In this document: in pieces, positions 1-64,000 of the stretch | How positions within the stretch are numbered: position 1 is the first letter of the stretch | Layout of the letters: every line of letters starts with the position of its first letter | DNA from: Tubulanus polymorphus | Lineage: Eukaryota > Animalia > Nemertea | Assembly (NCBI RefSeq): GCF_964204645.1 | Contig: NC_134036.1 | Coordinates: 10,023,859-10,087,858 of the forward strand | DNA: 64,000 nucleotides | Direction of reading: 5' to 3' | Position numbers and translations under genes: made by a program | Notes under the pieces: model-generated | Told to the model about the DNA's origin: nothing | Database searches by the model: none | The model's input: only the letters and a program-made list of their open reading frames with translations

Positions 1-422
1 AATTCTTTTAATAATTTATCTTGTTCTTCAACTGTTATATGGCCATTTAAACTTATTATATAATCTAGTGTGTTCTTTAATTTATTAATTTCTTTTATAT
101 TAGTTTTAATTTTTTCTTTATTACTTTTTATATTTAATTTTGAACTTATACCAGTTAAAACACTTGAGCTTAATCCTAATACGCCAATTGATATAGCTAA
201 AAGTGTTAATGGGCTGAATATTGCTAAAAATGTTATTACAGAACTAATTGTAACCGAACCACTTATAGTCAAATAATATATAATTTTACTTTTTAAATAT
301 TTTTTCTTTTTTATCTTTAAGTCATTTTCAAATTCTAATATTTGTTTTTCTAAATATGTTTTTAATTTAGTTTTATTTATATCATGAGTAATAATATCAA
401 TATTATCAACTTTATCTTCCAT
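1..422 (-). CDS. Polinton small membrane protein, open to the window edge
   Basis: Hand translation MEDKVDNIDII...IIYIILTISGSVTISSVITFLAIFSPLTLLAISIGVLGLSSSVLTGIS... has two hydrophobic segments and no stop before base 1. Preceded by T8-CTAAA-TAAATG. Not in the ORF track. Confidence 0.7.
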   Translation of the reverse strand, partial: MEDKVDNIDIITHDINKTKLKTYLEKQILEFENDLKIKKKKYLKSKIIYYLTISGSVTISSVITFLAIFSPLTLLAISIGVLGLSSSVLTGISSKLNIKSNKEKIKTNIKEINKLKNTLDYIISLNGHITVEEQDKLLKE

Positions 423-441
423 TTATTTAGAAAAAAAATTA

Positions 442-864
442 CTAATTAGTAAATTTATATGCTACAAATATAGCAATCACTGTTCCACCTAAAATCCATA
501 TTATTTCATATTTCTGTTGTTCTTTACTTGGGGTATAATAATCTGATAATTTAGGTTTGTATAGATGTAATTTTTCTTTATTGGTTACTGCGTTATATAT
601 ACTCATTGCATCATCAACTGATAGAAAATCGCTATGTGAAATATTCTGATCAATTAATTCTTTATTGATGTTATCCATATAGTTTTGTCTCTTTTCTCTA
701 TATTCTTCTGCAGCTTTATCATATTTCTCTAATGCTAAGTTATGTCTTTTTTGTTCTGTTAATGATCCATTTTTATCAATATGTTTAAATAAATAACCAC
801 CACCAGCAAATGCAAAAGCGTTGACAATTGCCGATCCTATAATAGTTATAATTGCAGAAGCCAT
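442..864 (-). CDS. Polinton-associated small protein (N-terminal hydrophobic segment, KRHNLALE coil, C-terminal TM)
   Basis: 140-aa ORF with a TAAATG start context; resembles small proteins of invertebrate Polintons. Confidence 0.65.
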   Translation of the reverse strand: MASAIITIIGSAIVNAFAFAGGGYLFKHIDKNGSLTEQKRHNLALEKYDKAAEEYREKRQNYMDNINKELIDQNISHSDFLSVDDAMSIYNAVTNKEKLHLYKPKLSDYYTPSKEQQKYEIIWILGGTVIAIFVAYKFTN

Positions 865-888
865 TTATTTAGCAAAAAAATTATGCAT

Positions 889-1099
889 TTATATGGGAGG
901 AATATATTTTTGTTTTTCCAAATAATCAATAGGTAAATTAGATAAAGTAACTGCTAACGTTATTTTTAAAATATCATTTATATCAAATCTATCAACATTA
1001 ACACTTCCCATTTTAAATACTTTTTTTGATACCAGTGAATAACCAACAGTTCCAACTGATAGTAATGCGCCATTATATAATCCAGTTATTATCACTCAT
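889..1099 (-). pseudogene. Polinton small hydrophobic protein (ends DYLEKQKYIP), frameshifted near the start
   Basis: The TAAATG-context ATG at 1099 is one base out of frame with ORF 889-1095. Confidence 0.5.
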
Positions 1100-1456
1100 T
1101 TATTTATCAAAAAAATTACTATCATCAAAATATTTAGTTAACTTATTTATGATTATTTCAACATTTATTTCATTACTAGTTTCATTTGTATATATTTCAA
1201 TTATTATTTTTTTAATATCATCGATGATAAAATCTTCATCTTATTCATAAAATCTTAAAGATTCTCTTATTAAATTAGTAATCTTTTTTACATTTAAAGT
1301 TTCTTTATCTATTGTTGTTTCATACTCGAATGTTGTTTCATTAGAAAATGCAATATTTTTGATACGTGTGATTATATCATTAACGTTAAATTTCATTTCT
1401 TTCTCACGTTTGAAATCAAACCCAAAACATATACTCGGTCCAACAGTTATATTCAT
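1100..1456 (-). pseudogene. Polinton hypothetical protein with an internal stop
   Basis: ORF 1241-1456 continues in frame past the TAA (DEDFIIDDIKK...NFFDK*) to 1100. Confidence 0.5.
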
Positions 1457-1472
1457 TTATATAATGAAAAAA

Positions 1473-2262
1473 TTACTCTTTACATCTTATAATTAATTCA
1501 TATATCACAGGAAAGTTATTCAAATCAATTAAATAACCATTATGATTTCTTATTTCTAATTTAAAATTATTAAATTTAGGAATGCAAGGTTTAAAATCAC
1601 ATTCAGCTAAATTATAATTTATTTGCGTTCCAAATTGTTTAACATTCTTTAATGGTAAAATGTTTAATATACTAGAATTACAAGTTATATCTTTAGTTGC
1701 TTCAAATTTTTTTGTTGGGTCAATTAAATTGCAATAAATATAAAAATGTGTAAAAGGTATTAAGCTTGATCTACCGTATATGTTTTCTCTAATATCTTTA
1801 TCTGGAGGAATTCCTAACAGTTTAGCTATAGGTTTTTTTCACCATGTAAAGATATCTTTCTATTGTATGTTGATAAAGTTTAAAATAATCATTATCAAAC
1901 TTTATTTTAATTTTATTAGAGCTCTCACTTTTTATGAATTTAATATTAAATTTAGAATCACTACCTAATCTAATGCGAGCTTTTCTATTAATTTCTTGCT
2001 CTAATGTTTCTATATTATATAATCCTGGTGTAAGCATGAGTTGAAAATTTTTTCTTTTATTCTTATCAAAAATAAAAAGGCTTCTATGTTCATCAGTTTT
2101 ATCTGATATATAGTAAAAAGAGTTACATAAACTTATATTAACTAATTTTAAATCTACACAATTCTTAAATTCTCTATCAAATTGAACTAATAAATTATGT
2201 GATTTATAATTTGTAAGTCTTCTTGAATCAACAAATATTCTGTATTCTTTTAATTCTACCAT
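1473..2262 (-). pseudogene. Minor capsid (penton-like) protein, frameshifted
   Basis: N-terminal IFVDSR...LKLVNISLCNSFY...PGLYNIETLEQEIN. C-terminal frame IYCNLI...ILNILP...LEIRNHNGYLIDLNN...ELIIRCKE*. Both match the Polinton penton pattern. Confidence 0.65.
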
Positions 2263-2330
2263 TATTTATAACATAAAAAAATTACCGCTCATCACTAAAA
2301 ATTAATTTCAATAAAATTTTTCCTTAATAA

Positions 2331-3650
2331 ATGGATGAGAAGATAGCATGTGAAATTTGTGGTGAACTTCTAAGAAAAAGTGATATGGCTCGACATATGA
2401 AAAAACATGATGAAAATTATAAACCCCCTAAACTAAACTGTCCAAGATGTAATAAATTATTCTCAAGAAATCATGTTAAAAAACATTCAGAGAAGTGTAA
2501 AATTAATGGCGCAACGGCTAATGTTGATAGTAACGAAAGTAATAGTAATTCTGTTGAAGTAGAACCTGAAGTTATTTGGAAAACACCTTTCTTATTCTAT
2601 GACAAGGATAATATAAAAGATCATTTCTGTGAGCCTTGTCGAATAAAATATAGCCCTGAAAATATAGAAGATTGGGAGAATCATCAATTTCGTAAAGCAC
2701 ATATAGATAAAATTTCTAATAAATTTGAAACTGAATTCAATGAAAGAAAAAATAATTTATTAGAAAAAATAAAATATGAGAAAACGTTACCAGATAATAA
2801 AGAAACAGTTGAAAAGTTAGAAAAACAATATAATGAATTAACAAGAAAAACATATTATTGTAAATATTGTAAATTGATTATTACAACAAGTAATTCAAAT
2901 CTACATAATAGAACAATAAAACATAAAGAAAACGTAAGAAAATACGAAGAGCTTAATGAAGATCTATTACCAATAAATTATAAACGAAAATGTCCACAAT
3001 GTAGTTATGCAACCTTAAGACAAGAAGGTACTGTGTTATTTTGTAATGAATGTGGATGGCAAAAGAATTTATGGAGTGAAGAAAAAACTAGAAATTTTCT
3101 CATAGATCCAAAAATAAATTATCTAGATGAAATTGAAAATGAAACATTTTCTATAGAAGATCATACACCAGAATATATGCAATGGCTTGAAAAAATAAAA
3201 ATAATAGAAAATAGAAATGGTGAAATAACTAAAAAAGATATTATAAAAACAATTATTCCGTCAACATTTAACACAAAACATAAGAAAATGTATTTATATT
3301 TATTATTTAACGATTATTATGAAAAACCTAAATTAACAGAAGAAGATATGGAAAATATAAAAAAAACATTCAAACAAATATTAATGTATCATTTGGAAAA
3401 TAGAATAACAGATTCAATTAATTATGAATTCTTTTTAAATAAGATTGTAAATTATTTAAACATAGATATTATAATTCCATTTGATGAATTAACAAACAAA
3501 AAGAAACAAAGAGAGCGAGATGAAATGTGGAACAAGATAGAACTTTATTTGAATGAGAAAAATGGAATGGAAGAAGAACCTGAACAATTAAATGAAAATG
3601 AAGAAGCCAATAGTGATTTCGATTATGATGATATTGATTTTATGTTTTAA
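2331..3650 (+). CDS. Zinc-finger protein with a poxvirus late transcription factor VLTF3-like C-terminal domain
   Basis: C2H2-like fingers and a CPQC...FCNECG ribbon, then H..EY.QWL, PKLTEE, SINYEFFLNKI and RDEMWNKI, which follow the VLTF3 motif order. Confidence 0.7.
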   Translation: MDEKIACEICGELLRKSDMARHMKKHDENYKPPKLNCPRCNKLFSRNHVKKHSEKCKINGATANVDSNESNSNSVEVEPEVIWKTPFLFYDKDNIKDHFCEPCRIKYSPENIEDWENHQFRKAHIDKISNKFETEFNERKNNLLEKIKYEKTLPDNKETVEKLEKQYNELTRKTYYCKYCKLIITTSNSNLHNRTIKHKENVRKYEELNEDLLPINYKRKCPQCSYATLRQEGTVLFCNECGWQKNLWSEEKTRNFLIDPKINYLDEIENETFSIEDHTPEYMQWLEKIKIIENRNGEITKKDIIKTIIPSTFNTKHKKMYLYLLFNDYYEKPKLTEEDMENIKKTFKQILMYHLENRITDSINYEFFLNKIVNYLNIDIIIPFDELTNKKKQRERDEMWNKIELYLNEKNGMEEEPEQLNENEEANSDFDYDDIDFMF

Positions 3651-5166
3651 TAACCATAAGGTAATGTTTTTATACCATCATCTAAAATATGCCTTTTATC
3701 ATCAAATGGACTTAAACTAGTTTTTTTCAACTTCATTAATGTACATCTCGTGATCTTCTGATCTTAAACAATTCATTTTGTGTTTCATTACAATTGATTT
3801 ATATAAACACTTTATATAATCTTGAAATTCTATATGTTTATCAACCACATGTTTTGTTATTCCTTTTAACTTTTTAGCTTCATGATCTTTTGTTCTGTAA
3901 CTATACATTTTACTTCTTATCCCAACAAATTCAATCATTTCATCGCCCCCTAATTCATCTTTAAACTTACCAGGAATCTTTTTATTATCATTGCTAAATA
4001 GTTCATGATCTTTGGGATAATTGCTAAAATCAAAATGATGTTTTAATGTTTTTAAGTCTTTTGTTATGTCATTTGTCTTGATTTTTAGTATGTAACTGTC
4101 GGTATTTTTTTTGGATTAATGGGAACCCAGAATTGAATGTTCCATCATATGTTGATAAATCATAAACATAGTCAGTTGGGTTATATATTTCAAATGAATC
4201 TTTAACTTCTTCTGTTAATTCTTTTTCTACATGCCTCAAATTAAAACAATTTGGTTTAGATTTAATCAACCCAATATTCATATTGAAGCCTAATGAATTA
4301 CATAATATATTCAATCCTGATATAGCAACTTTTCCTTTCTGTGCAAAGGTTATCTTTTTATCCTTTGTAAATTTTTGAGTGCCATCTGCGGCATAGAATC
4401 CAATGAAGAACCATTTTCTTAAATTATTTTTTGCATTTAATACATAATCTGGTACTATCTTTTCTTTAGTTGAAGTATTACTTTTCACTATTGCATGAAT
4501 ATAGAATTCATCAATATATTTTATAGCAAAATCTTTAGGATTATTTACAAGTACTCAATAAACTGCTGATGATTTCATAACATCCATGATTTTAAATGTT
4601 TTATTTGGATAAACTTCTTCACAGAATTTCTTAATTCTTTCTAATAATTTTAAGTCTTGATTGCATAAATACCAACAATATTTATTAACCCAAACATAAT
4701 TATACACACCTGCTGAACCATCACCCATGAAAAATCCTTTGATAACACATTCTTTTTCTTCTAATGTTTCGGGTTCTATGTTATAAATATTATCAATAAT
4801 TTCATCAAATGACATATGATTCATTCTTTGGAAAAATCTTTTATGTAATAATTCATCTCCAATTTTTATATCAGTTGGTTTTATTTCATCACCATTTCGT
4901 TTAATTAAACTATGATCTTCTGTAACATCTACAAATCCTAATTTAGTTCTAACTCTATAGATTCTAATAATATTCTTAAATTTTTTCCATCCATTTCTTG
5001 TCCAAACATCCATTAATCCATTTATTTGTATTAATTCTTTTTCACCATATGAAATATAACATTCATTTTGTTTTGGAATTAGTTCTGAAATTCTTCTTAC
5101 CAATATTTTATTATTACATTTTAATAATTTTGGGGTGTCAGCTGTTACAGAATCAAAATATAATAT
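3647..5166 (-). pseudogene. pPolB C-terminal segment (motif C, with intein)
   Basis: ILYFD|intein|TDSYIL...FDFSNYPKDH...GKFKDE...FVGIRSKMYS...KLKGI...SLSPFDDKR...TLPYGY*, with frameshifts. Its stop overlaps the stop of the convergent VLTF3-like gene. Confidence 0.9.
4104..5151 (-). other. Intein with a LAGLIDADG homing endonuclease, inserted in pPolB YFD|TDS
   Basis: Block A SVTADTP, block B VDVTEDHSL, LAGLIDADG-like GFFMGDG and GFYAADG, block F YVYDLST, and C-terminal QKN followed by extein Thr. One in-frame TGA (4555-4557) and one extra A in the 4105-4112 homopolymer. Confidence 0.9.
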
Positions 5167-5986
5167 TTAGGGTTTTCTGTTTCTTCACAGAAAACCCTAT
5201 TGAAATTCGCGTGATTATTATTATTTTTTTCCCTTTTCCACATAGTTTTTGTTAAAAGTGTAAAGGCTTCCTTACCTTACCGCAGTCGCCGATACAATCC
5301 GCATGATGTCCTTCAGCTCACTTCAATCTCCAGATACTGCATGGGAATTTTGATAAATCCACGTTATAAAGGCACTGTCGAGCCGTAAACATCGGAAATT
5401 TGGCTCCGTTCAATTAGTAGCCATGTTGTGTTTTCTTACCGATATTTCTCTCTTCTTTTCGAGGAAGAGCTATCGAATAATTCCCTCTCTTCTCCACAAT
5501 CAATTTCAAAGTCAATTTTATGAATTTATTGCTCAGCGGGTCCGAGTCTAAGAATTTACGAGTCCGGCGTTCGCGCGTCTGACAGGTTTACGGGCATTTG
5601 TTTGTTACCACTTTAATATTTTTGATTTCTTGTTATTCCGGTTATTTCATTTAAGTATATTGCTGATCAGTTCATGTAACCAAAAGCGTCAATAAATAGA
5701 TTTTGAATTGATCAATTTTAAATCAAGGTCGTTGAGTCGCGGAGGGCTGCTAGAATTACGTTCGTCTCAGAGAGAAAACAAACGACAGAAAAGTATCAGG
5801 TGATTATCGATAGCCTACTACGGTACACACAGTTGACAAACAGTGTTAGGCCTGTGCCGGTTGGTGCGTACTGGGAATAAATATACTGGTTAGTCAGTTG
5901 GTTCGGTTGTGAAGTGTGGAAGCTAAGAAAGCCTACCGCAGTACCGGTATTAATTTGTCTATAGGCCTGTTACCAGTAAGTACGTA

Positions 5987-6356
5987 GTTGTTACTCGTAT
6001 GTGACTGTATGGTGATCTCCACAGGTTAATCGTACGTGAGTTCCCTACTAACGCCGTACGCGAGTTCCTAGTAGCCAATACCATTTTTTAAGTACGAAGT
6101 TGTTACCCGTAGGCCCTATGTGCCAGTGACTGTACGGTGATATCCACAGGTTAACCGTACGTGAGTTCCATAAAAAGGCCGTTAGTGAGTTCCTATAATC
6201 TGCAAACGTGCATGCGTGAAAGAATAGAGTTTGGGTTAGGTGAGGCTAGGCTATTTGTAAATCAAATTTTATCCACCCTGCAGTTACGTTCTGTGGCACA
6301 GTGGGTAAATCACTGGACCTGTAGAAATCACCGTACAGTCACGTACAGGTAACAAC
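5987..6356. mobile_element. Small TIR element (MITE) nested in the HINE
   Basis: About 40-bp imperfect inverted repeat GTTGTTACyyGTAyGTGACTGTAyGGTGAT at both ends, with the left end duplicated near 6098. Confidence 0.5.
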
Positions 6357-6561
6357 AGCGTTTTAAGTACCGGGTATTAAGTGAGTACGACAAGCCTACC
6401 ATGCCTATGTACTACAAACACAACTTTTTCCCTCTCGTCGGCCCTACAGTGATGTTACTATAACTGGTGCAGTTATAACATGGATAGGATTTGGCCAGGA
6501 CTAGCCTAAAGTCTAATTCAGTCTATGTACTAATTCACTCGATAGGCCTATTTTTAAAACA

Positions 6562-6730
6562 GGGGTCATTCATTTATTACGTACGCATAAAATTTGATTA
6601 TTTCAACCCCCTCTCCCTCTGTACGCAAAATCGGCCATTTTTTCATGTACATTAAGCATCATAGTACGTAATTGCCCTGACCCCTCCCCCTCCCCATCCC
6701 CTAATGCGTACGTAATAAATGAATGATCCC
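6562..6730. mobile_element. PIF/Harbinger-type MITE
   Basis: 27-bp TIR GGGrTCATTCATTTATTACGTACGCAT (1 mismatch); 3-bp TSD ACA at 6559-6561 and 6731-6733. Confidence 0.8.
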
Positions 6731-8165
6731 ACAATACAGTGAAGTATTCACACGCAGAAAGGCTAATTGATTTGAGCCATGTGATTAAATTTGGCCAGGC
6801 CTTCTCTGACCTGCTGACATTAATAGTCAATGTGGTCACGGCTTGTATACCAGAAATAATTGTAGGCCTGTACATTTTGCTGTTCGTAGGTTTGGTATAC
6901 CGATTTCTCCATTCTTGACTGATAAGTGTACAGTATAGCGTACGCATTATAAAATTGTTCCAATGGGAATAGGGCCTATTGATTGGGCTTATTATTTCCT
7001 GCTTTAGAATACTGAAATAAGCCCAACGTTCATTCAAATATCCAACATCGGTGAAAGTTTGATTACTGTATACATGTACTGTAGGTTTTCATGTTGTATG
7101 AATATTTTGCAGTTCAAATGGGTATGATGCTGATTCCAATGTCGAATGCATGCAGTTAGATGGTCAAGGACAGTCAACACCAAGATATCTCTCTTCGACC
7201 GATGTTGCACCATAGAAGATCTGATTCTTTCAACTCAAGGAAAGTGATTCAACACGATCGACATAACACTGGAATAGGTTTGCAGTAACTAACAGTTCAT
7301 TTCATTTAGTCCTATGTACTTTTTAGCCAATTTGGATTTGATTGTAATTGAAACACTGGAACAAAAGACAAGTTGAAAAAACACAAGTTATGCTTGATTC
7401 TCATGTCCAAATTTAATTCAAATTCAAATTTATTTTATTACACCATATTTACAAAGCATATCATTGGTTCATACAATAATAAAAATTAGGACAGAACAAA
7501 TATTATTACAGAATTTCCAAAAAGGCAATGAATTTCTATAACTAAATGAACATTATTTTTCTAATAACTCAGATCAAGAGTGACTTTCCCGTTTATTAGG
7601 AAACACACCCAACTAGTGAAATAGGTTTGATTTAAACATATGTTGCAGGTATCAATTGTTTATCACTATAATATTTTTAATCCATAAAAGCCAAAATCAA
7701 CATCAGCAGGAAACCAAGACCAGATCAATTCATACTTTATTGATTGAATCTACACTACAATATATGTATTTATTCAAATATTTCAATAAAAACATTAACT
7801 TCTTAAATCTATTCTAAATCATAATACGTTCTTATCTGTAAATTCACTCAATCTATCGACTCAGCAGGCGCTTAAGATGAGTTCTTAATAGGACAGATCC
7901 ATTTTTAAGCATGGTGATAATACAGTATCATGATGTTTGAATGCCAAAATAAATGCCTGGTCAAATAAATTAATATTTGTTGATTGTACGTCCGCGTATG
8001 TTCGGTTTCAAAGCTGATCATATTTGACGTTTACACAGTGGTAGCATATTAGGTTCGAATCTGTCAATGCATTTTATTCTATGTATCGATATTTCAATCT
8101 ACTACAATTCCCATCTTCCTGAATGGCTTTGCAGAAAACCCGTCATCGCTGCTTCGCAGCTATAT

Positions 8166-9712
8166 TTCAATATGCTTTTCCCCAAAAAGTGGTTGTAAAA
8201 CATTATAATAAAAATCATACATTAATAATTTTGATATTTCTAAAACAGTTGAACCTATAAATATTGGTTTATTAAATTTCATTGAAGTTTTTTTAATTTA
8301 ACTGCTGTTAAATAATCTTCAAATCTTTTATTTCCTAAATGTCAAGGACTTGATTGTAAATGTCTTAATCTTTCAGAATTATTTACTAATTCAATATCAT
8401 TTCTATTTCTAATATTTTCACATGTTTTACCATAAAAACTATTATTCATTAATTTGAAGAAATCTTTTTCAAAATCTGTTTTTGATATGGTTCTCTGTTG
8501 AGTATTAAAATCTATATATTTTTCTAACCACTTCGATTGATTAAATTCAATATATCTATGTACTTTCTTTAATTTCATTCCTTGTTTTAGATAAAATTTT
8601 AACATTCTATAATGAACAATATAATTGTATTTATTATTTTGAGTAAGTATTAATTTTTCTGTAAAAACATGATCTTTCGGTTTTATTTTCTTCTGGTATT
8701 CACTTAAATAACTATCATCTACAGTTAAATGTTCTGGGCAATAAGGTAAGTTTCTTGTTTTAAACTTTATATTATCAGGATATTCTAAATCAACTACAAA
8801 GAAATAACCAATTGGTGCTTCATCTTCTAAACTCATAATTGCGCTTTCCCAATTAGTTTTATCACCATTTTCAACTTCTGTTAATATAAAATTTTTATAT
8901 GGTTGAGGTTGCATCATTGCCCAACCATATAAGTTATTGGCGTCAATATATAATAATTTATATTCATCATTTGCTTTAAAATATCTCCCATAACACCACT
9001 AATTCCACCTCTAATTGATTTTTCAAATAATAAAACCATATCTGGTTCTTTTAATAAATCTAATTCTACATTTGTATATTTTAAACCACATTGCCAGGTT
9101 AAACCAGGACTAGAGTAGCAATAACAAGGATCAACATTAAAATGATTCAAATTAACTTCTCTAAATTTTTCAAATATGTCAGCCAATATCATAACATTTG
9201 ACTTTAAATATAAATCAACTAATTCACCATGATTTTTCATCTTAAAATGGTTCCAAATATTTAATGTTCTCTTAAACACTCCGTCTTTCACATACTCCTC
9301 TTTTAATTGATCATAAAATTGATCTTTTAATAATTCTGTTACATTAAAATCATTGTGTGTTTTATAAAATGAATAAGGAATTGCACCTTTATATCTCAAT
9401 AATTTAAAATCTTGGTCATTTGGATAATAATATCGAGTTATTATAAAATCATTATCAACTAAACTTTTTGATAAATTATCTAATGAACTTGCTAGAAATC
9501 TATAAGAATCTAAAAATCTAATGCAACCAAATTGAAATGAAATATAATTTTCAGAGGTTTTAGCTAATAGTTTAAAATCATATTTTCTTACATTTACACC
9601 ATTCATAGCATTATATTCTTCTATTTCTTGATTAATTGTACCAAATTTCTTTGATAATTGTTTTATAAATAGATGGGTATCATAGCCTGATAAATTATGA
9701 AATAATATTGGT
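8166..9712 (-). pseudogene. pPolB middle segment (exonuclease and palm)
   Basis: HNLSGYD, RFLDSYRF, YKGAIPY, IRGGIS, DANNLYG, FFKLMNNSFYGKT and NKPIFIG motifs across frameshifts. Confidence 0.92.
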
Positions 9713-10856
9713 CACGTACGTACAGACAATACGAATCTTGCCAACTTTAATTATTGATCGTATTAATCCATATCGCGCACTGAGCTTCGCGCCATTTTGT
9801 GCTAATGCTGTGAGATATAGACTTGGAGTGACTCGGGAGTGCTCCGAATACATCGTCAGTAAATGTGGGATTCGAACCTAATATGATTAGATTTTTAGTA
9901 AACATCCGCCACTAGTTCGTAGAATTTTCGGAATTTCTATTAACATTCTCGTTTTTTGTCAATCCTGAATTTCGTAACCCGGAAATTTTCGACATTTTCC
10001 GCTACAAATGTGCGATTTCTATCCATACAATAGGCCTAACTTAAAAAAACAAAATGTGACGAACTAGATATTAGTATGTAGTTTATATAACTATGTAATT
10101 TTATGGGTCTCTGTCATTGTATAATGTCAAAAAAGTGACACTCGTCTGTAAATTTGCACAATTATTAAAAATTTTTTTGGCGCCCATAATAATCGTTTTA
10201 CGTTTCGTCTTTTTACATTGCACATAGTCACTAAACTGCTTATTTCTACTGTTAAGTTTTTTAAACAGTTGATTGAGATCAATTAGATTTCATTCTATTC
10301 AAGTGAAATTGTGACCTTGTTAAAAAAGAAGTGAAAATTAAGATGGTATTCAAAATCAAGCAAAATTAAATTTTATTCGACAGAGTTATGTTTAACGCAG
10401 GAGCTTTTATGTGTTAATAGTGATATGTCTTCAACTTCAAAACAATTCATTCTCATAGACAGCAAAAATGACACTTAAATAGGCCTAAACTAGAAATTGT
10501 TGCAGTCTAGGTGGGCGAGTGATAGGCCTCTATCGTCTACTATAGTTTCTCGAGCCTTGGCGCTTATCAAGTCTGTCTATTTCATATAGTATAAGCCTTT
10601 TACGGCTTTTCGACCTTGTAAAATTACCAAATCAAATACATGTAGTTTGATTAATGTATAGGCCTAGGTCCTGCATTTGAGGTCTCTCGGGCCTCCAAAT
10701 GGTAATAACTATTGGTACATTTTTTGTAATTGTAGATGTATTTGTCATAGTCGGAATAGATTTGTCATTCAACATAGTCGGGTTCGTCATAAAGGATTGA
10801 GCAGAGTCGTAATCGATGAAGGGATTCAGTAATCGTTGAACACAGGGGTAAGTTTC

Positions 10857-11456
10857 GGAGTCGTAATCGTTTAACGGAGTCGCAATCGTTAAACGGAGTC
10901 GTAGTCGCTGAACGGAAGCGTAATCATTGAACGGAGTCGTAGTCGCTGAACGGAAGCGTAATCATTGAACGGAGTCGTAGTCGCTGAACGGAAGCGTAAT
11001 CGTTGAACGGTGTCGTAGTCGCTGAATGGAGTCGTAATCGTTTAACGGAGTCGCAATCGTTAAACGGAGTCGTAATTGTTAAACGAATCGTACTCGTTAA
11101 ACGAGTCGTAGTCGCTGAATGGAGTCGTTATCGTTTAACGGAGTCGCAATCGTTAAATGGAGTCGTAGTCGCTGAATGGAAGCGTAATCGTTGAACGGAG
11201 TCGTAGTCGCTGAATGGAGTCGTAATCGTTGAACGGAGTCGTAGTCGCTGAACGGAGTTGTAGTCGCTGAACGGAGTCGTAATCGCTGAACGGAGTCGTA
11301 ATCGTTGAACGGAGTCGTAATCGTTGAACGGAGTCGTAGTCGCTGAACGGAGTCATAATCGTTGAACGGAGTCGTAGTCGCTGAACGGAGTCGTAATCGT
11401 TGAACGGAGTCGTAATCGTTTACGAAGTTGTAATCGTCAAACCTAGTCGTAATCAT
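10857..11456. repeat. 19-bp CpG-rich minisatellite (CGGAGTCGTAaTCGtTGAA), about 30 units
   Basis: Tandem units with alternating variants, flanked by the direct repeat GAAGGGATTCAGTAAT.GTTGAACACAGGGGTAAGT. Confidence 0.9.
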
Positions 11457-12996
11457 TGAAGGGATTCAGTAATTGTTGAACACAGGGGTAAGTCAATGGA
11501 TTTAAAGAAATTTTTAGGGCTATAGTTAGAACATACATTGATATATTGTTTAATTGATTTTTGTAGGTCAGAAAGCAGTAGACCGCGAGCCCTGGGGCAG
11601 GGTAGCTGGGAAGGTTACCAGCATGTTGGGTTCTGCAAGAAAGATCTACTATGGTACAGCGAGGAAAATAATATCATTTAAAGAAAAAATGGCTAAGCTT
11701 CATAGTAAGTGATTCTGCAGCATTTTGTATTAGATGTTTATTATTTATTTCTATTGTTCATTACATTATGACTCTACCCTGATTATTATTTTGGAAAGTT
11801 GCTCTGATAATTAAAAATGACTTATGGCAAAGATTGGCAATGATTTCTTAATTCCGCAATTGGTGGTAACCTTGTGAAATAATGCCAAAAAATCAAGTCA
11901 ATTGTATTTGAAAGATTGTAAATTCAATGGAACTGTTGTTCTAACAAACTCCGGTATATAATAGTTTGTGAAAAATATAATTCGCAATAATAGGAATACT
12001 GCTCGTTATAGCAGACAGTCAATTTACCGATCAATTTTGTTAATTGCTGTGAAGTTTATTTTGACAATGTCCATTGAATGTTTGTTAAAGACTAGTTGAT
12101 AAAAATTCAAGTTGATCAATTCTCTAATTTTACATATGTTGACTGTTTTTTTCTTTTATACATCCATCATTTTCAATTCATATTGTTGTTTCAATAAAAA
12201 CCTTTCAAAAATTATATATGACTGTGTTTGTCTTTCTTAGCCATCTAATTCAAGAAAGGTTACTTGGGGTTCTTGGATCAAATTTATAGCAGGATGGTAA
12301 TTTTATTCATAAAGAATGTATCTGGATCGAAATATTCCTCTAACATATCGTATATTATGGGTACCCTGTGTATAAATTATTTACAATAAGTGAAAGGAAA
12401 TGAGTCTCAGGATAAAGTTTTTGTAAAAGAAGTGTGGTTCTGACAGCTGTATTATAAAGGTGAGTTTCTTGACTATTTCAAAGTTCATTTTCAAACTAAC
12501 TTGAGTCTGTCCTTGGGTGAAATTGAAGTTTGTTACAGGACAATTGTTAGTCAAAATAGTGTTCCAAAAGTGGTAGCATTTGACATGGTGAAATATCGAA
12601 TTATCACTAACAATTTCTATCTGATGACAGACTGGTTAATTTTTCTTTTGCCTAATTAATCATTTAATTTCCTCTGCATGCAACATACCAACAAATTTAA
12701 AACTATTCCATTTTCAGCAAGTGGTAGACATAGAATTTATTGAAATCATTGTTTCACAATAGACAAATTGCGTCAAACTAAATACATGTATTACCTTATA
12801 TATAATTAATTAAAAGCAAAAAATGCTGATACCTTTATGTTTTAAATTGTAATATTACAAAATGTTAGTTGCATTAACAGTTTTTAAAGTACGCTCGTGC
12901 AAGCTGCACCATATAAATTTTATTTACAATAATTACTGGGTTGTACCTTAAGTATTTAATCTAATGAGTTGAATGTTCTTTCAATCAATCTAACAG

Positions 12997-15560
12997 GCTC
13001 TAGGAGAAAATCAGCGAAAAGTGACATGCAGTTGGCAGATGAAAGCAATGAAACACTTTTAACCGCAACCCCTTCTTCAAATGATCACCTGACATCAACG
13101 CCATCATCGTCAACACTTTCATCACCCATAGAGTCTATAATCCCCCCTGTTAGTACGCCAATTTTAAAAAGTTCGGAAAAATACATACTAGAAGATAAAA
13201 TCGAATGTTTGAGAGCAGAAATGAAAAGACTACAGGATATATTGAAAAACCCGAATCTCCTAATGATTACGTCAGGCACTATCAATGATGAAACATTTGT
13301 GGTACAAGAATTAAACAGCGCTAATCAACGAAAAAGTTCATTTATATGTACAAAATTAGATATACCAACTGTGGGGTCATCAATTGCCAGTCGACAGACA
13401 CTTGAGAAGAGAGCTTCTAAATTATTTTCTGTAGCGAACATCATTTCAGCCAAGTCCAAATCAACAATCGATACAGCTGCTACAGTTAGTTCGTTGTTTA
13501 ATCAGAATCAGGAGCTTAAAGAATCAATTTTTTCAAAATCTCCGGAGTTGTGTAAACCTCAGAAGCTATCTCCTGAAGAGTCTGTCGACTTGAGGCTTAG
13601 TGCTCGATTGACAATGAGTCAATATATTTCTATTGACTCAATCCTTAAAAACAAAGGTATCTATGTATTTCCCTCGGTCAATAAAATACGAGAAGAGATA
13701 AAGATTCGCAATGAGGATTTCACGAATAATTTATTCGTTGGTGAAAAGTTAATGGAGGTAAATAGTAGATCTCATGAGTTTCAAAGTGCCCCATTTGATG
13801 TAGTCACTAATCTGAAACAAGCGGTTGAACTTACCCTAAAAAAAATCTCGGCAAGTAATGCATTCGTGGATGATCCTAATTTCCATAATGAGATTTGGAT
13901 GAAAGTCGGCATTGATATAGGTGGGGGTTCAACAAAAATGGTGTATTCAATACTCAATAATAAACTATGTAATAGTCCCGACCAGACACAGCTAATGGGG
14001 TACTTTGAAGCCATAGATTCAAACGAAAACATTGAATCTATTTTTGGGCGATTTCGTGAACAGTTGAATGATCTCAATCACGTAGCATTTAATGGCGATG
14101 AAAAGTCTCTACGCATCTTTCACATAGGGGACATACATTATCTTTGTCAAAATTTAGGGCATCAGGGATCTACTGCCTCGTTTCCATGTTTATTTTGTAA
14201 GGTCAGGCTTGAAATTCTCAGGAAAAAGGATGCCACCCCCCATAATTCTAGTCATTCACCCTTTGAAATGCGAACGTTAACTCACTATCATGAAAATGCT
14301 GCAAAAGCAAAAATGTCTTCGCCTGGGCCAGACACTTTCAGTGTAAATGATAATATGATTTTCCCCCCTATAGATATGGATCATGTCGTACCGCCGCCTT
14401 TACATATTTCACTGGGCTTAGGCCTTATGTTTTTCAACATGTTGGAATCAAAATGTAAAGTCCTAGACCGTGGAAATTTATCTGAAAGAGATGCTACCCT
14501 AGACGAAAAGTGGCAAAAAGCATCAGAGGATGTGATCAAATTAGAGAGAGAAATAACTTCAGTGAGTGAGAACATCAATGAAAAAAATGATATTTTGGAG
14601 CTATTAAAAAATTCGAAAAAGAGAGGTCGCTGTGCCATAAGCTGCACAGCAAAAATTTGTATTATACGATGTATACAGAAGCCTGAGCCAAACCATTTTG
14701 TTGAATGCGCTGAATGCGAAATGCCCTATCATTTTCAGTGTGTAGGTGAGCAGAAAAATTTCAAGTGTATTGAATGTTTAACCGGGAAGGTCGAATCTGC
14801 CGAAAAAATCATAAAACTAAAATCTGATGAAATTCGGCATCTTAAGTCAAAATTGACTGAACTAAAAACCTCCCTTGCTGTGGCGAAATCACTTCTAAAT
14901 GAAATACATAAAGAAATTGATGCTACAATGGGTCCTATCACACGAAGTTTAAACAAAACATTGAAATCAATTGGTGTTGACAGACAAGCATATTACAGCC
15001 AGAGCTTTGTAGGAAACCATGTATATAAAATGATCCAAATCAATGAGAAAGTCAATAATCCTGCAAAGCTCTGTGCTGTGTTAAAAAAATATCCAGCAAT
15101 TCAAACACTTTTTTTAACACTGTTTGAAAAATTTCATGCGATGTATGTAATTTACAATGCAAGTAGATTTTTGTCGAATAGCGAAATTGACATGCTTGAA
15201 CGTTTATGTCTTGATTTTGGATCATGGTTTCCAGAAAATTTTCCGGAAGCTAATATAACGCCGAAATTACATGTTCTTATATATCATGTTGTGCCATTCA
15301 TTCGAATGTGGGGTACATTGGGTCTTTTTAGCGAGCAAGCTCTTGAATCGAAGCATGCGTTGATAAATAGAGATGTTCGCACGTACTGAACCATTCGTGA
15401 TAAAGTTCGCCGCACTAAATTAATTTTCCTCAACCAGGCACTCTATGCAACGAAGTCGATTAAACGTATTCCGATAACGCGTAAATGCCAATGTGGTTCC
15501 TTCTTGAGAAGCGTTAATGATAAACGCATATGCGATGGTTGTAAAAGTACATCGAACTGA
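12997..15560 (+). pseudogene. RAG1-like DDE transposase with an internal PHD-like finger; premature stop at 15387-15389
   Basis: KVGIDIGGG, IGD..L...GHQG.....PCLFC, PPPLH, ITPKLH and SEQALESKH motifs. Likely splice acceptor TCTAACAG ending at 12996. The frame continues past the TGA to ...RKCQCG...ICDGCKSTSN*. Confidence 0.8.
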
Positions 15561-17625
15561 TTTTCGAACATGCTGATCTCCAGAAACCTGATTCTGAAAG
15601 AGGAGATTTGTTAATAAACCTTTGTACATAAATAACTGCTGGATGTGGTTTAAGAGCAGCTTGTGAGCATGTTCAATTTTGTGAATATTATTTTGATGCA
15701 AGGCATTGAATGAAAATTATTATACAGCAAATTAAATATAAGTGAAATCAACTCACCAGTAATCTTATTCAATCATAACAAACATGTTGAAAATAACTTC
15801 ATAAATTCTTTCAAACCTGAAAGTCAAAATAGTGTTATTGATCATTTACACATATTCTTATCCACGAGCAAGGCGTACATGTTTGTATTATTAGAACGGT
15901 GAATAAATAAAATGACCTTACTTATGAATAACTTCATCTGTCACCCTTGAAAAACATTCTTTCAGTGTTTAATGATCTGTAATGTATAATAAATCAGAAA
16001 TGTAATGGAAGCTTTATGAATATTTTATAGTGCCGGTGATAAATAATAACTTTTTCTTTAAATTAGCATTAATCACTTATTTTTACACGCATGCTCGGCT
16101 TAAATGCCTCTTTGACGAGGGAGAAAAATGTATCCAAGCTAATTACAAACTATTTGAATCAAAAAGCTAATTTTGGATTTGTAATTAAGTAGCGGTTCCC
16201 TTTTCCCCAGAGTCAATTACCTCAGTTTATGGCATGCCTCGGACTTAGTTTGACCCAGGACAATTGTCTCAGATTGTTGCATGCCCCGATCAACTTTTAC
16301 CCCAGACAAGAGATGATTTATTGCCTTGGATCTTCGCATGCCCAGATGGAATGGATTGCCTTGGATTATTGTGTGCTTTCTAGGCCCACCTGATGACTCC
16401 ACGTTTGGTTGAAGGTCACGATCGCGCGCGATAGATTTGTTCGCGGATACCAAAAAATATCGATTTCCTAAAAGGTCACGATGAGTGCGCGAAGCTTATT
16501 CTTAGTATTGCTCTAGAGATGTTCGTGAATTGTTCAAATCACGATATCCAACGTACGAAACTAGTTCGGCACTTTATGCAACTAAGTCGAATAAGCGTAG
16601 TCCAATTGTCCGTAAATGCCAGTGCGGATTTTTTTCAAAAATATCGTCTCCGATACGAGGCGGTAAATCTGAAATAACAAGATTTTTTAATAAATAATAC
16701 ACTAAAAAGTCATAAAAATTATTTACAGATATTGTTCTACTTGCGAGCAGGGCTTTCATGCTTGTATTGTATGAGAATGGCGATCGATTAAACTTACTTG
16801 AATAGCTTTGTCTGTCCCCTTTGAAAAAACTTTGCTGTCTTAAAAAAACCTAGGCCTATAATATATAATATGATAGGGCTTACGAAATGTACTGGAGGCT
16901 TTAGGCTTAGATTGACTATAATCGCACGGCGTCGATTGCCACAGATTATCAGATTATCGCCCACTCTCTAGGCCTACCTGACAATATTACAACTCTTAGT
17001 ACAATTCATTGTGGTCACAACCCATCCCTGCTTCGACTGCCCCGAAAAAAACAAATAACTGAGGGAATTTACTAGCCTCGGACGGGTCAAATTATCTGAC
17101 AGTTTGCACTTCAATATACATGAAATAGGCCCATCGATGGAGCTAGGCCTGAAGGTGAATGCGGTTAACTGTTGATACGAATCTTTTTTTCATTATGGGT
17201 TGACATCTTAACAGAATTACTTCAATATAGGCCGCGGTCTGAGTTAAGAATTTGAAGTGGAAATATTTCCGGGTTTCAGCGAACCCGGAAGTAAGTAAAC
17301 AAATTCAGTCGTATTTTTACATTTATTGGGTCAACATGCAGCAAACATACACCATTTAACGGCCACAAACGTAATTCTTTACTTACATTAACAAATGACA
17401 CCCATTAAAGCAACTGGAATGGTTTCAAAGGCAACCAATTCATGATACACTCCGATATTTTAACTATCGTGTCTTTGCGAGGATGACTCCACGTCTTGCT
17501 GAAGATCGTGATCGCGCGCAATAGATTTGTTCGCGGCCACCGAATAATATTGATTTCCTTAAAGGTCACAACAATTACGCGAAACTTCAAGGTCTCTTAT
17601 TCTTAGCGTTGTCTGTACGTACGTG

Positions 17626-19611
17626 TGGTACGAAATTAACTTTCTTAGCTTGTAAATTGCAATCTTCATGAGCAGTTCCACGATATTTTGAATTTAAATG
17701 ATCATGATCTCTAACTTTTTTATCAAATGAATAAAAACGTTTTTCACAATAACAACAATGAGTTGCATAATTAAAATCAATTTCATCTTCTTTTGTCATA
17801 ACTATTCTTTTATTTTTGTTTAATAATTTTGCAAAATCACTTTCTAATTCAATCATTTTATCACAAAAATCATTAACTACATTTTCACCTCTAAAAGAAA
17901 TATATTGACTTTCATATAATTCAGGATAATTTGATTTTATGTAAATTCCATAAGCAGCAGCTCTTTGATGAACTTTTTTAATTGTATTTATAATTGGTGG
18001 GTCTTGAATTATATCTTCATTTAATTCATTTCCTTTATCCATTGATTTTAATAATTGCTTTTTGTTATATATTTCTTTTCTATCTTGATCAGTTAATTCT
18101 TTATTCAACGATTCAAAATCCCCATAAATTACAAATGGAACAATATTTTTAAATTTATGATTAGTAAATTTCAATTCATAATCTTTTTCTGTTGGCATTA
18201 TTAATTTACAAAAATCTTTATTATCACATAATTCTTTATGTTTTAATAATGTATTCTCAGTCATAAATTTAGATAAACATTTTCTACATAGATAAATTTT
18301 ACGATGATGATCACTTTCTGTTCTAAAGAATAAATCAATTTGTTTTAACCACATATAATGTTCATTTTCATCTTTTTTGTAATATAACAAATCTATAACA
18401 TTTTCATCATCATAATATTCTGTTAAATATAAAGCTTCCAATGTATAATCTTTAATATTTTCACCTTTTGTCTTTGGTAATTGCATTAATTCAAATACAT
18501 TTATTTTTAAATTATTAACTTTTTCTATTTTAGGAATCATTTTTATAGTTACTGGATATTGATCAATTTTATATAATGTTTCATATTTCCGGTAATTTGT
18601 TATTCTAAAACTATGTGTCATATCTTCTGTTGGGTGTAAGCAACTAATAATTGACCATAGATAACATTTATTATCTTCATTTTGAACATTTATTACTGCT
18701 TTTGTTGTAAATGGTAATTTAATATAAGAAGATGCTTTAATATCCTTTTCTGTTGTAAAGTTTGAATCATTTTTAAACATTTTATTACTTTTTGATGTTT
18801 TATTTCTTTTTGTATTATAAACATTTAAATCTAAATATATAATTTCATTCAATGTTAAGCCAGAACCCTCAAAATATCTTTCTTCAATATGACGTTTAAA
18901 TTCATTAAATATTTTTTCTAACTTCTCTTTTATTTGTGTTTTTGAAATTATTTCTTCAGAGTGTGTTTGAATATTATAATTCATTTTTTCTTCTGACTTT
19001 ATAAAACTTACTTTCCCAGAGATACTAATTTTTGGATATTCAACATCTGTTATCAAATCTAGTATTTTTTCTATTATTTCATTAAATTTACTATAATCTT
19101 CTATTGTTGTTCCTTTAAAAAATCTAAATATAATAGCTGCAGGACCAATATTACTATGTAATGTTTCTGAGATTTCAATTGTATCTTTTATTTCTAGTGA
19201 ATCAATATAATTTCTAACATTTTCCATGTAAGGTTTATTTGAAATGGATTTAGTTTTTGCATTTGGTTTTTTTACTTTTTGAGGTTTATCGTCAAAATAA
19301 TCTTTTCCTAAAACATTATTACTCAAATTTTGGCGGTGTTTTTGTGATTCGAGATGTCTGTTATAATTCCTTTTTACTATAAATTCATTACAAACTTCAC
19401 ATTTTATTTCATCCACATTCATATTTTCTAATCTTTCTTTTCTTTCATTGGAATTTTCTGGAGTTTCAAAATCTATTACATTTTTTATATGATTTGCAGT
19501 TTTTTCATGTCGTGTTTTATGAGATGTATCAATGTATTTTTTACAATATTGGCAATAATATTGATTTTTATTAACATTATTGTTTTCTGGCTGGTGTTCA
19601 TTCTCTCCTAT
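17626..19611 (-). pseudogene. pPolB N-terminal segment (zinc fingers, terminal-protein/vOTU-like region, ExoI, EndoVII-like HNH insert)
   Basis: SYIKLP...NEDNKCYLW...HYMWLK, YGDFES and CCYC...VRDHDH...YRGTAH..CN. The frame extends 63 codons above the track ATG to an ATA at 19611. Confidence 0.9.
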
Positions 19612-26481: not shown

Positions 26482-27429
26482 TTATTTGAATGAATTTCTA
26501 CAGCAGATTTTCATACAGAAATATTCACGAATTTCTCGTCCAAGTAAAAGATATATGTAGAAGTTTACCACATAGTTACTCATAAAGAATTGTGTCAAAA
26601 TATCATATAGAAATTCTTTCTGTTCCGTAAGGATTGGTAAAAATACAACAACAGTGGTTGGAAGTGTGAATATTGCAAATGCGAGTGAAACTGTTACAAG
26701 CATCATTGTTGTACGTTTCGATTTTGTAGTTTTCTTATCAGACGAAAGCATTTTTGTACCTCTGAATAACTGAATAATTATGATAGAATTTGATATTAGA
26801 ATCAACGATAAAGGCAAAACAAAAGCGTAGACACCAAGTGGAGTAAGAAATTTCATTTGGACAATTAATTCATAGTAACATCCGAAAAATTGGTCGGAAA
26901 ATTGTATCGACAAAGTAGCGGGAAGTTGAACCAGTACAGTCACCGTAGTAATTATCAATATAGCAAATCTAGCGAATCTAGGCGTGCATATCAAACGAGA
27001 AGTGAACGGAAAGAGAACAACTGCCGCACGTTCTAGAGATATAGCTACCAATAACCAGGAACTGCTAGAATTGGCACCTGCCATCAATATTTCATATATC
27101 TTACAACTGATCAGTGAATTCATGATGAATATAAGACTAGTGTTTAGATTCAAGAGAACTAACTGTAAAACAGGCATCAGTGTAAAATGTATACAGAACA
27201 GGAAATCACAGACTGATAAAATGACAAGATAGTTAGCGTAAGATAAACTGCGGAATCTGCGACTTGTCATTATTAGAAAAGTAGCTGAATTTCCAAAGAC
27301 TCCAAACAGAAACACGATAGGCAGAATGACCAACGACACAGTACGGTAAGTTCCAGACCTGTTCTCCACCGACATTAGAATGATGTAACTGCTATACGTT
27401 CGACCAATTCGTATCTTAGTTGAATTCAT
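26482..27429 (-). CDS. Class A (rhodopsin-like) GPCR, peptide-receptor-like, intronless host gene
   Basis: Seven hydrophobic segments with GN (TM1), LSVCD (TM2), SLER (TM3), the TM6 Pro and NFYIY (TM7). Confidence 0.88.
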   Translation of the reverse strand: MNSTKIRIGRTYSSYIILMSVENRSGTYRTVSLVILPIVFLFGVFGNSATFLIMTSRRFRSLSYANYLVILSVCDFLFCIHFTLMPVLQLVLLNLNTSLIFIMNSLISCKIYEILMAGANSSSSWLLVAISLERAAVVLFPFTSRLICTPRFARFAILIITTVTVLVQLPATLSIQFSDQFFGCYYELIVQMKFLTPLGVYAFVLPLSLILISNSIIIIQLFRGTKMLSSDKKTTKSKRTTMMLVTVSLAFAIFTLPTTVVVFLPILTEQKEFLYDILTQFFMSNYVVNFYIYLLLGREIREYFCMKICCRNSFK

Positions 27430-28157
27430 GATTCACGAGAATTAACTCTGTTCGGTACGCTCTAGACCTGCTCACTACAGGCATTATAGCGATGTAACTG
27501 ATAAACTGCATCTGAGTTGAATTCATTATTCGATAAAGTGTCAGAGGTATGTGGACTGATTGAATCAATAGACTGACGCTACGTGCAAGCCATGACATAT
27601 ATTCATTTACGCACACAATTTATTTTTGTTCGTTCGCATCAAATGAAAAACAATTCTCAGAAATCTGACTGAAAACATTATAAACCCGTTAGCACTCAAG
27701 CCATCCGTATCCGCCCAGACTAATACTCCTCAAACCTCCCGAATTTTCCCGGCACTTTTTCGTATGCCGCACCACAACGGTTATAGTGTGACTCGGGCCC
27801 AATAGCTTATGATAAACTAGACACCTAAGTTCTCGAAATACCGTACAGAAATCAACATCCTCCTATTTCAATTTCTCAAGTATTTCAAATTTGACACATC
27901 TGAGCGCTCACTTCAAATCCAAGTAAGTTTGGATGAATTTCGGGGGCGAAAAGGACATGTTTTTAGTGACCCGCCTCATCAAATCTTACATCATATTAAA
28001 ACCTTGACAATTTACTAAAAAATAACACTAACTTGTTATGTATGGAAATCGAGATCTCGAATAGAACTCTGCTCACCCAAGACTGCGGACCTTGTTGTAG
28101 AAAGAAGTGGCATTCTTTAAAGTCCGATTTTCCACTCAACTTTTGGCAAGAAGCAGC

Positions 28158-29075
28158 AGTAATTGAAAAATAGCGTTTTCACACCAGAGCACGAGAGTAC
28201 GACAAATCACTCATCACCACTAGTAATTTTTCCTTACAAATGGGAGACTGTGAGTACCAGACAGAAAAATTGATGTTAATAAAAATCAATATTATTGTCC
28301 ATACTGTAAAAAGTACATCGATAAATCTAATAACTCTCATCACGAAAAAACTGCAAATCATAAAAAAATGTTATAGATTTTGAAACACCAGAAAATTCAA
28401 ATGAAAGAAAAGAACAATTAAAAAATATGAAAAAAAGATAAAATTAAATGTAATGTTTGTAATGAAGTTTATAGCAAAAAGGAATTATGAAAGACATCTC
28501 GAATCACAAAAACACCAACACAATTTAAATAAAAATATTTTAGCAACAGAATATTTTGATGATAAACCTCAACAAGTAAAAAAACCAGCTTCAAAAACTA
28601 AATCTATTTCAAATAAACCTTATATAGAAAATGTAAGAAATTATATCGATTCACTAGAAATAAAAGATACAATAGAAATTTTAGAAACATTACGTTGTAA
28701 AATTGGTCCTGCAGCCATTATATTTAGATTTTTTTAAGGCACAACAATATATGTTTATAGCAAATATATCGAAATAATTGAACAAATAATGGACTTTGCT
28801 ACAGAGTTGAATATCCAAAAATTAGTATTTCTGGAAAAGTAAGTTTTATAAAATCAGAAGAAAAAATGGAGTATAATATTCAAACATATTTTGACGAAAT
28901 AATTTAAAAAACACAAATAAAAGAGAAAAAAATATTTAATATTGAAGAAAGATATTTTGAGGGTTCTGGTCTAACATTGAATGAAATCATATTTTGGATC
29001 TGAATATTTATGATACAAAAAGGAATAAAGCATCAAAAAGTAATACATTGTTTAAAAATGATTCAAAATTTTCAA
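28158..29075 (+). mobile_element. Polinton fragment D: terminus plus decayed pPolB 5' end (relative of element A)
   Basis: AGTAATTGAAAAATAGCGTTTTCACACCAGAG terminus, colinear with 19696 to about 18760. NKPYIENVRNYIDSLEIKDTIE is nearly identical to copy A. Confidence 0.85.
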
Positions 29076-61962: not shown

Positions 61963-61989
61963 AGGAAGAGAGTTCAAATATCCGAATAA
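60460..61989 (+). pseudogene. pPolB N-terminal half (zinc fingers, vOTU-like region, ExoI), truncated
   Basis: Homologous to 17626-19611 (IGPAAI, YFEGSGL, NEDDKCYL, VPFVIYGDFESLN). Confidence 0.88.
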
Positions 61990-62998: not shown

Positions 62999-64000
62999 TC
63001 AATATCCGTACGGAAGCGTGTTATACCGATCTGCGGGGTCGAAAGCTCGTTTAGTATAAACCGCGCGATATATTTTTCGTTCGTCTCTATTGTAAATAGA
63101 ACAGTCCTTGATCTTTCTATTAATTTTGTCAGGGTTTAATATGTAAAGATGGTCGTACTTTTCTTCGACAATTATATCTACCATGGAACCAAAGTTTACA
63201 ATTTGTTTGTTTCGAAAATTCAAATTGATCCCTTTAACTTTACATTCCGTTGAAAATGTATTATCTCTAGGACTGAATACCCGATATGCATAATTTTTGG
63301 GTCCAGCCGAAACAAATTCTGAAATAAACGACCCCTCCCCGTATTTATCGACCAATTCATCGGTCATATCACCCAAAAAATTCCCGGTCGGCGGATCCCA
63401 TTCACCAGGTTTCACGCTATAAATAATGGAGTCGGTATCCGTGTATAGGGTTCGTTCCCCTAATTTCTCCATATAACTATAGAGAATAAGCCGCGCATGA
63501 GCCGTTGTGAAAGCTGCTAAAGCGACGCTGGTTTTGTTTGTCGATTCGACAAATTCTGCGCGTTTTTTGTAATGCACTCTTAGCACCTCGTCATTACACA
63601 ACAACAAATCGCTTATCTCTAAAGTTTCATCCAAAAGCATTCTATATAATTCCCCGGGGTCCAAAATATATTTAGCCGTCGTCTTATTTTCGTTTTGACC
63701 GAGTTTACCCCACATCGAATTTAAGCATAATTTCGTGACTGTTCGCATCCCCTTGGCTTTCTTAATCTTATCTTCTTCGAGTTGGATACCCTCTCTTTCT
63801 AAATAATCGGAAATGAATTTATCCTTCTCGTCGCGCGACATATCTTTACACGGCCAACCACTGGCTTCGGTTTTAACTTTGAGGAATTTTCCTATATAAT
63901 CCTCGAATAAACCCGTTTCATTAGTTTCCCAATTCCAAATTTCATATATATCTAATATCTTATAACCAAGTGTCACTGCTTTTTGTACCTCTAAAGTTAC
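62999..64000 (-). CDS. pPolB C-terminal part from a different Polinton/adintovirus lineage; no intein
   Basis: KLCLNSMWGK, LYTDTDS, SAGPKNYAY, KVKGI and TLPYGY*; followed by a G-rich TAGATGGCGC-containing TIR-like region (62505-62860). Confidence 0.9.
   Translation of the reverse strand, partial: VTLEVQKAVTLGYKILDIYEIWNWETNETGLFEDYIGKFLKVKTEASGWPCKDMSRDEKDKFISDYLEREGIQLEEDKIKKAKGMRTVTKLCLNSMWGKLGQNENKTTAKYILDPGELYRMLLDETLEISDLLLCNDEVLRVHYKKRAEFVESTNKTSVALAAFTTAHARLILYSYMEKLGERTLYTDTDSIIYSVKPGEWDPPTGNFLGDMTDELVDKYGEGSFISEFVSAGPKNYAYRVFSPRDNTFSTECKVKGINLNFRNKQIVNFGSMVDIIVEEKYDHLYILNPDKINRKIKDCSIYNRDERKIYRAVYTKRAFDPADRYNTLPYGY

Follow-up and report, generated by a model that had tools for sequence, protein, structure and literature searches.

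The interrupted polymerase gene

The minus strand of the window (the whole stretch analysed, 64,000 nucleotides) carries a gene for a family-B DNA polymerase of the protein-primed type (pPolB), which runs from 19611 to 3650 and was traced by tblastn (19575 to 3650) with an uninterrupted relative, P0002, matching it at 54-81% across P0002 residues 674-1689. Its N-terminal part (17626..19611) corresponds to P0002 residues 1-674; the exonuclease and palm portion of the N-extein (8163..9711; PF03175, E 5e-8) contains a stop and frameshifts; the last five N-extein codons, I-L-Y-F-D, lie at 5152..5166; and the C-extein (3650..4103), which has a further frameshift near 3720, begins with T-D-S (Thr+1 at 4103-4101). 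Between these last two pieces lies an intein (4104..5151) apparently combining a Hint domain with a LAGLIDADG endonuclease, broken in this copy, its 1,048 bases not making whole codons. The gene is further split by a 7.9-kb transposon, a 3-kb insertion and several frameshifts. Judged by its sequence, the polymerase is of the protein-primed family-B kind that would place it with the Polinton/Maverick (adintovirus) elements.

The larger intruder (9713..17625, no strand assigned) is a nested DNA transposon with 17-bp TIRs starting with CAC, a 4-bp target duplication and a DUF1280 ORF of 809 aa at 12960-15389; it also holds a 19-bp tandem array, and we take it to be Transib/Chapaev-like. The smaller (5167..8167, likewise unstranded) is a non-autonomous insertion, presumably HINE/Helentron-like, that is present at high copy and absent from other copies; it has a hairpin and sub-terminal inverted repeats. 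In raw short reads of a species that contains the window stretch (run X6), 142 reads skip 5162-8162, and over 1,300 and 2,200 loose ends fall at the two ends of the insertion.

A host GPCR gene (26482..27432, minus strand) marks animal DNA. All six homologues found for it come from Tubulanus polymorphus, the best at 62% identity, and the contig is therefore animal, not the foreign DNA that would have removed the novelty of the original prediction. The contig is probably nemertean and the element an old integrated copy; an animal host is thereby demonstrated for the window's lineage only, not for relatives P0002-P0006. The window yielded no recognised capsid, ATPase or integrase gene, and Pfam named no integrase, packaging ATPase, protease or capsid among five neighbouring ORFs at 3-3650. 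The element probably extends past the left end of the window. Four small minus-strand ORFs at 3-2265 gave weak Pfam matches only; they may resemble adintovirus membrane and penton genes.

A second pPolB (62999..64000, minus strand) has an uninterrupted Y-T-D-T-D-S at 63445. The empty site that had been pointed out in this gene is thus real, but the gene was rejected as an allelic empty control because it belongs to a different pPolB class: judging by how they score against PF03175 and how similar they are to one another, P0005 and the 62999 gene look Alpha-like and the window gene Beta-like. Further N-terminal pPolB-like fragments at 28405-29075 and 60421-61989 are related to 17587-19611, forming inverted repeats with it (tblastn match 60460-61923 for the second).

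Intein residues and lesions

At Y-F-D/T-D-S (slash, insertion point) of a Polinton-type pPolB sits a class-1 intein that contains two LAGLIDADG helices. In the minus-strand translation 5151-4104 is flanked by I-L-Y-F-D and T-D-S-Y, in agreement with the roughly 349 codons first counted between YFD and TDS. P0001, the window intein translation with its single stop read as X, opens with SVTADTP, and every other motif named beforehand was located: block B, T-E-D-H, at 4912..4923; the two helices, GFFMGDG at 4717..4737 and GFYAADG at 4381..4401; block F, YVYDL, at 4156..4170; and K-N before T-D-S, in another frame past the 8-T run. Ser1 (5151-5149), TEDH, the Asp of YVYDL, the terminal Asn (4106-4104) and Thr+1 make up the full set of class-1 residues; Lys rather than His precedes the terminal Asn, as in Mimivirus. 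Chance is not the explanation: TEDH has a single occurrence across all six reading frames of the window, and P0001 hits polymerases that bear inteins with E down to 2e-125. Third-position GC in the intein (0.15) resembles that in two flanking extein pieces (0.14 and 0.23). A spliceosomal intron was rejected on account of coding motifs all along the insert, and a hedgehog-type Hint or bacterial intein-like domain on account of the internal position, the endonuclease, the Asn/Thr junction and the empty alleles described below.

Both lesions predicted within the intein are there, as is the insertion five codons upstream (its end is at 5167). The in-frame stop (4555..4557) is nearly private to this copy, the window letter at 4557 being found in 3 of 185 reads. 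The frameshift in the run of eight T (4105..4112), at the C-terminal end of the intein, fits either a private mutation or an assembly error; an indel relative to the window occurs at 4105 in 45 reads and at 4114 in 20. Comparison with relatives adds a third lesion, an in-frame gap of six residues near residue 58. With stop, frameshift, deletion and two transposon insertions the window copy is dead, and is capable of neither splicing nor homing.

Profile and structure evidence

The profile searches that had been proposed as a check gave a divided answer. The window copy stays under the curated Pfam and NCBIfam cut-offs, with no Intein_splicing or intein_Nterm match and LAGLIDADG_3 at E 4e-4 (21.0 bits, cut-off 22.5), while its relative P0003 passes both Intein_splicing (37.7 bits against 35.8) and intein_Nterm (32.9 against 24.5). 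P0006 and P0122 also pass intein_Nterm, with P0002 and P0005 just under; Intein_splicing is not reached by P0002, P0005 or P0006; and LAGLIDADG_3 is above cut-off in P0002, P0003, P0005 and P0122. The only PDB sequence match of the window intein is PI-PkoII (E 0.003). A structure model of P0001 (mean pLDDT 61.5) is good for the endonuclease half only, the Hint half being poor with pLDDT under 50 at 62-108 and 292-346; intein-endonucleases make up its top five PDB folds. In an alignment with six full-length pPolB relatives, every splicing residue and the two LAGLIDADG aspartates are conserved in each of them (6/6). Two helices, acidic catalytic residues and a matching modelled fold are the features expected of a LAGLIDADG (DOD) endonuclease, which the insert thus appears to encode.

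Relatives with the same insert

Among 91 long matches to P0001 the best five are pPolBs with an insert at Y-x-D/T-D-S (43-59% identity); the others are 78 RNA-primed giant-virus-type PolBs, including that of Mimivirus (37%), seven topoisomerases and one unclassified protein. Nineteen shorter matches include nine with pPolB exteins and six close intein fragments whose extein is too short to class. The 150 highest-ranking cluster representatives, out of 1,378, include one with a pPolB extein, two short close fragments and 134 RNA-primed PolBs. Uninterrupted proteins joining pPolB and intein are present in other assemblies. Scans with intein alignments returned 160 viral and metagenome loci, none of them a pPolB and many of the closest on giant-virus MAG contigs; scans of viral contigs with single proteins (P0001, P0002) gave no match. 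The pPolB-intein clusters have 136, 121 and 55 members, many of them short, the contigs of listed members ranging from 9 kb to 1 Mb, and these clusters suggest multi-copy endogenous elements.

Intein and extein identities are similar for the window and P0002 (59% versus 56-57%) and for P0003 and P0004 (64% versus 68-69%). The exteins of P0005 have no BLAST match to the other pPolBs, and its intein is 43-46% identical to theirs. Two further arrangements were seen. P0139 (574 aa) has a related full intein at M-D/S...H-N/T-D in a host protein that matches none of the polymerase and topoisomerase references used, a further host gene. Many giant-virus-type PolBs (P0156-P0165 and others) hold one intein in motif B and a related one in motif C.

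Filled and empty alleles

Intein-less alleles, which we sought in the reads, are present. With the X6 reads mapped at 80% likeness, coverage drops from about 700 beside the intein to about 120-220 within it, and 231 reads leave the C-extein for letters like those of the N-extein (165 at 4105 and 66 at 4095). About one quarter of related copies are filled, a rough figure, as the extein may gather more distant relatives. Some reads have other indels, and short reads report junctions rather than whole unbroken copies.

Two protein families contain both filled and empty alleles, with exteins 94-99% identical. In the P0003 cluster 15 of 136 members were read: seven are filled, six empty and two too short. 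Set against one filled copy, each empty of this family has 8-10 changes in the 24 positions lying up to 12 residues from the site and 9-57 in the 881-1,167 positions elsewhere (1-5%), while filled copies show 0/24 differences beside the insertion. This local spike in divergence has Fisher p of 3e-5 to 1e-11, where the copies are related and the tests are not independent events. Differences common to all the empties span residues -7 to +44, which may be a co-conversion tract, and positions -5 to +3 vary among the empties, which could represent escape variants. In the P0006 cluster (15 of 121 members seen), the filled P0110 and the empty P0113 are 98-99% identical with identical flanks. Removal of the insert leaves the conserved host motif, as displayed by the natural empties P0113 and P0099-P0106 and by the reads at the junction. 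Motif C variants, D-C-D-S and D-T-D-A, occur in P0099, P0101-P0103, P0105, P0106 and P0125, in pPolBs that are otherwise near-identical; P0125 is a filled allele with T-D-A.

Phylogeny of the intein

In a rapid first tree, built from 172 inteins, the 17 pPolB rows all fell together (support 0.96). IQ-TREE (LG+F+G4) was then applied to 68 rows: 13 pPolB, the nearest 45 among 211 non-redundant others, and 10 spread. The pPolB inteins form one clade at 100/100 (SH-aLRT/bootstrap) with a stem of 0.49, sister to 23 giant-virus-type inteins at 85/68. For a second tree, of 60 rows, 13 rows were dropped and five archaeal inteins added (three outgroups and two Asgard-labelled); the pPolB clade is again 100/100, now sister to 17 giant-virus-type inteins at 91/86, nine of which come from giant-virus MAG contigs, and it is nested in larger giant-virus-type groups at 99/75 and 93/98. 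Its stem is long in both trees (0.47-0.49). The two Asgard-labelled inteins branch apart from the pPolB clade. A G-F-P-L-type C-terminal signature occurs in 14 of 17 pPolB rows and in 41 of 287 other inteins at the same site; phage matches are weak (two records, 24-27%).

The sequences support giant-virus PolB inteins as the nearest non-Polinton relatives of the window intein, with moderate support for a specific sister group. The tree against NCLDV and archaeal PolB inteins thus bears out a place among giant-virus inteins of that site. Movement from a giant-virus PolB into a Polinton stands in so far as these nearest relatives are concerned; a one-off jump into this element does not, and the shared clade looks like an old acquisition, not a recent co-infection of this worm. 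Divergence within the clade roughly tracks that of the exteins in the main pPolB class, and we read this as a single capture long ago, after which intein and extein were inherited together for a long time with homing maintaining the intein, and at least one crossing from one pPolB class to another. Since the pPolB inteins are one long-stemmed clade that tracks its exteins, the capture would date far back, and the cell that was co-infected may have belonged to something other than this worm, or to no animal at all.

Archaeal-contig PolBs with a giant-virus-like intein class at the motif-C site were also seen (L161:745-4734, L162:685-4683 and P0026). The Asgard-labelled inteins of L161 and L162 are 39-41% relatives, one of the contigs being labelled Promethearchaeota, and in the 60-row tree they lie far from the three other archaeal inteins of the same site.

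Proposed explanation and alternatives

We are fairly confident that the window holds a decayed copy of an intein in motif C of a Polinton-type pPolB in animal DNA, likely acquired in an old capture from a giant virus and likely spread by homing among element copies; the core of the original prediction, an intein at the conserved family-B motif-C site of a pPolB in animal DNA, is supported. In an unbroken copy Ser1, the block-B Thr and His, the block-F Asp, the terminal Asn and Thr+1 would excise the insert, by analogy with class-1 intein chemistry as presented in the accessible text of PMC7765530 and PMC549080, and excision would rejoin Y-x-D/T-D-S to give an active polymerase. The freed LAGLIDADG nuclease would be expected to cut the empty site in other element copies, repair from a filled copy would write in the intein with some flanking sequence, and empty copies with altered sites would escape cutting. 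Many dispersed copies would supply targets without a second virus. Because family-B polymerases have motif C in common whether they are primed by RNA or by protein, an intein from a giant virus could enter a pPolB and later cross classes.

A real intein might instead have been inherited vertically with occasional precise loss, its homing long stopped and the empties being losses or lineages never invaded. Similar intein and extein identities within the main pPolB class fit such a history, as do the many copies that are fragments or pseudogenes, but it would leave unexplained why the active-site residues of the endonuclease persist at 43-64% identity, why filled and empty copies with 98-99% identical exteins differ in a tract from -7 to +44 with -5 to +3 varied in the empties, and why the intein also sits in the distant pPolB class of P0005; we think it unlikely. 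The donor could have been archaeal or unsampled, or the flow could have run from Polinton-like elements to giant viruses, for which one might cite the Asgard-labelled PolBs with a 39-41% relative at the motif-C site, the long stem and sister support of only 85/68 and 91/86. The pPolB clade nevertheless falls inside nested giant-virus-type groups (99/75, 93/98) with the Asgard inteins elsewhere, the G-F-P-L-type signature is concentrated in it (14/17 against 41/287) and the phage matches are weak, which leaves another donor or direction rather improbable. We consider it highly improbable that a contaminant or a co-assembled virus, and not animal chromosomal DNA, accounts for the element: a small share of the stretch is present in one marine metagenome (a marine metagenome run, X5, gave 8 records, which were left out of the analysis), but two transposons of host type break up the gene, one of them high-copy in reads of the same species, a ribbon-worm-like GPCR lies 21 kb away, and the 160 viral and metagenome loci include no pPolB.

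Capture from a giant virus followed by homing among copies may be taken further. We lean slightly towards the broader proposal that animal Polintons have a live intein family of their own, derived from one giant-virus capture, homing between germline copies, crossing pPolB classes and selecting cut-resistant variants; if true, animal nuclear DNA would have its first resident intein system able both to splice itself and to home. Giant viruses and Polintons have long been thought to meet in co-infected cells, and the locus, which places an intein in animal chromosomal DNA, offers direct sequence evidence of gene flow from the former to the latter. Filled, empty and apparently resistant alleles in one multi-copy family make the homing cycle of invasion, conversion, escape and decay measurable in a single genome. 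Gene finders and Polinton surveys may misread long pPolBs.

Comparison with known systems

The pPolB intein is well supported as an intein and apparently undescribed in this host class. Among the papers listed by full-text searches of the openly searchable literature, for several of which the top 20-40 hits were covered, none reports an intein within a pPolB or a Polinton or in the nuclear DNA of animals, and none describes one in an element resident in animal chromosomes. The accessible portions of PMC12220804, PMC13768754, PMC5718144, PMC10710043, PMC8502044, PMC13215967 and 10.64898/2026.10.13.758929 contain nothing on pPolB inteins. The view that inteins are essentially unknown from animal nuclear genes agrees with the summary table of Green et al. 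2018, which gives Metazoa 0 inteins and counts 67 viral DNA-polymerase inteins; iridoviruses infecting animals do carry inteins (Green et al. 2018; PMC549080, as far as their accessible text goes).

Nuclear inteins are described in fungi, algae and Anaeramoeba, and endogenous giant-virus PolB inteins in algae and protists (accessible text of PMC5784728 and PMC10710043). They share with the window their place in eukaryotic nuclear DNA and viruses as a likely source, and unlike the window they include no metazoan case in that text. Animal Polintons or adintoviruses have PolBs of two classes, Alpha and Beta (Starrett et al., PMC8502044), and, like the window, a pPolB with PF03175; in the parts of that source available the supplement is without the terms intein, LAGLIDADG, homing or Hint, and the text without 'intein'.

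There are also the HNH/VSR nucleases inserted in Polinton pPolBs of nematodes, oomycetes and molluscs (Jeong et al., 10.1101/2023.08.22.554363), which likewise put an endonuclease domain inside a Polinton pPolB. Those are HNH or VSR, whereas the window insert appears to have a full Hint domain, its splice junctions fall within the catalytic motif, and there are empty alleles to match it; the words 'LAGLIDADG', 'homing' and 'intein' are absent from the accessible text of Jeong et al., and one sentence in the available part of Krupovic et al. 2024 (PMC11071308) suggests that intein invasions produced the HNH/VSR inserts.

The nearest known system is the PolB intein of Mimivirus (Ogata et al. 2005, PMC549080, accessible text) with other NCLDV PolB site-III inteins, which share the site Y-x-D/T-D-S and a length of about 350 aa. 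Lying between the first Asp and the Thr of Y-x-D-T-D-S, and related to inteins of that site, the window insert is an allele of this same PolB site-III (motif C) intein. The Mimivirus and window inteins have in common Ser1, Asn and Thr+1, the Lys before the terminal Asn and two LAGLIDADG helices, and they are 36-37% identical. Unlike Mimivirus, the window has as host a protein-primed polymerase of an integrating element with many dispersed copies in animal nuclear DNA, and unlike the Mimivirus and other NCLDV inteins those of the pPolBs form a separate, long-stemmed clade.
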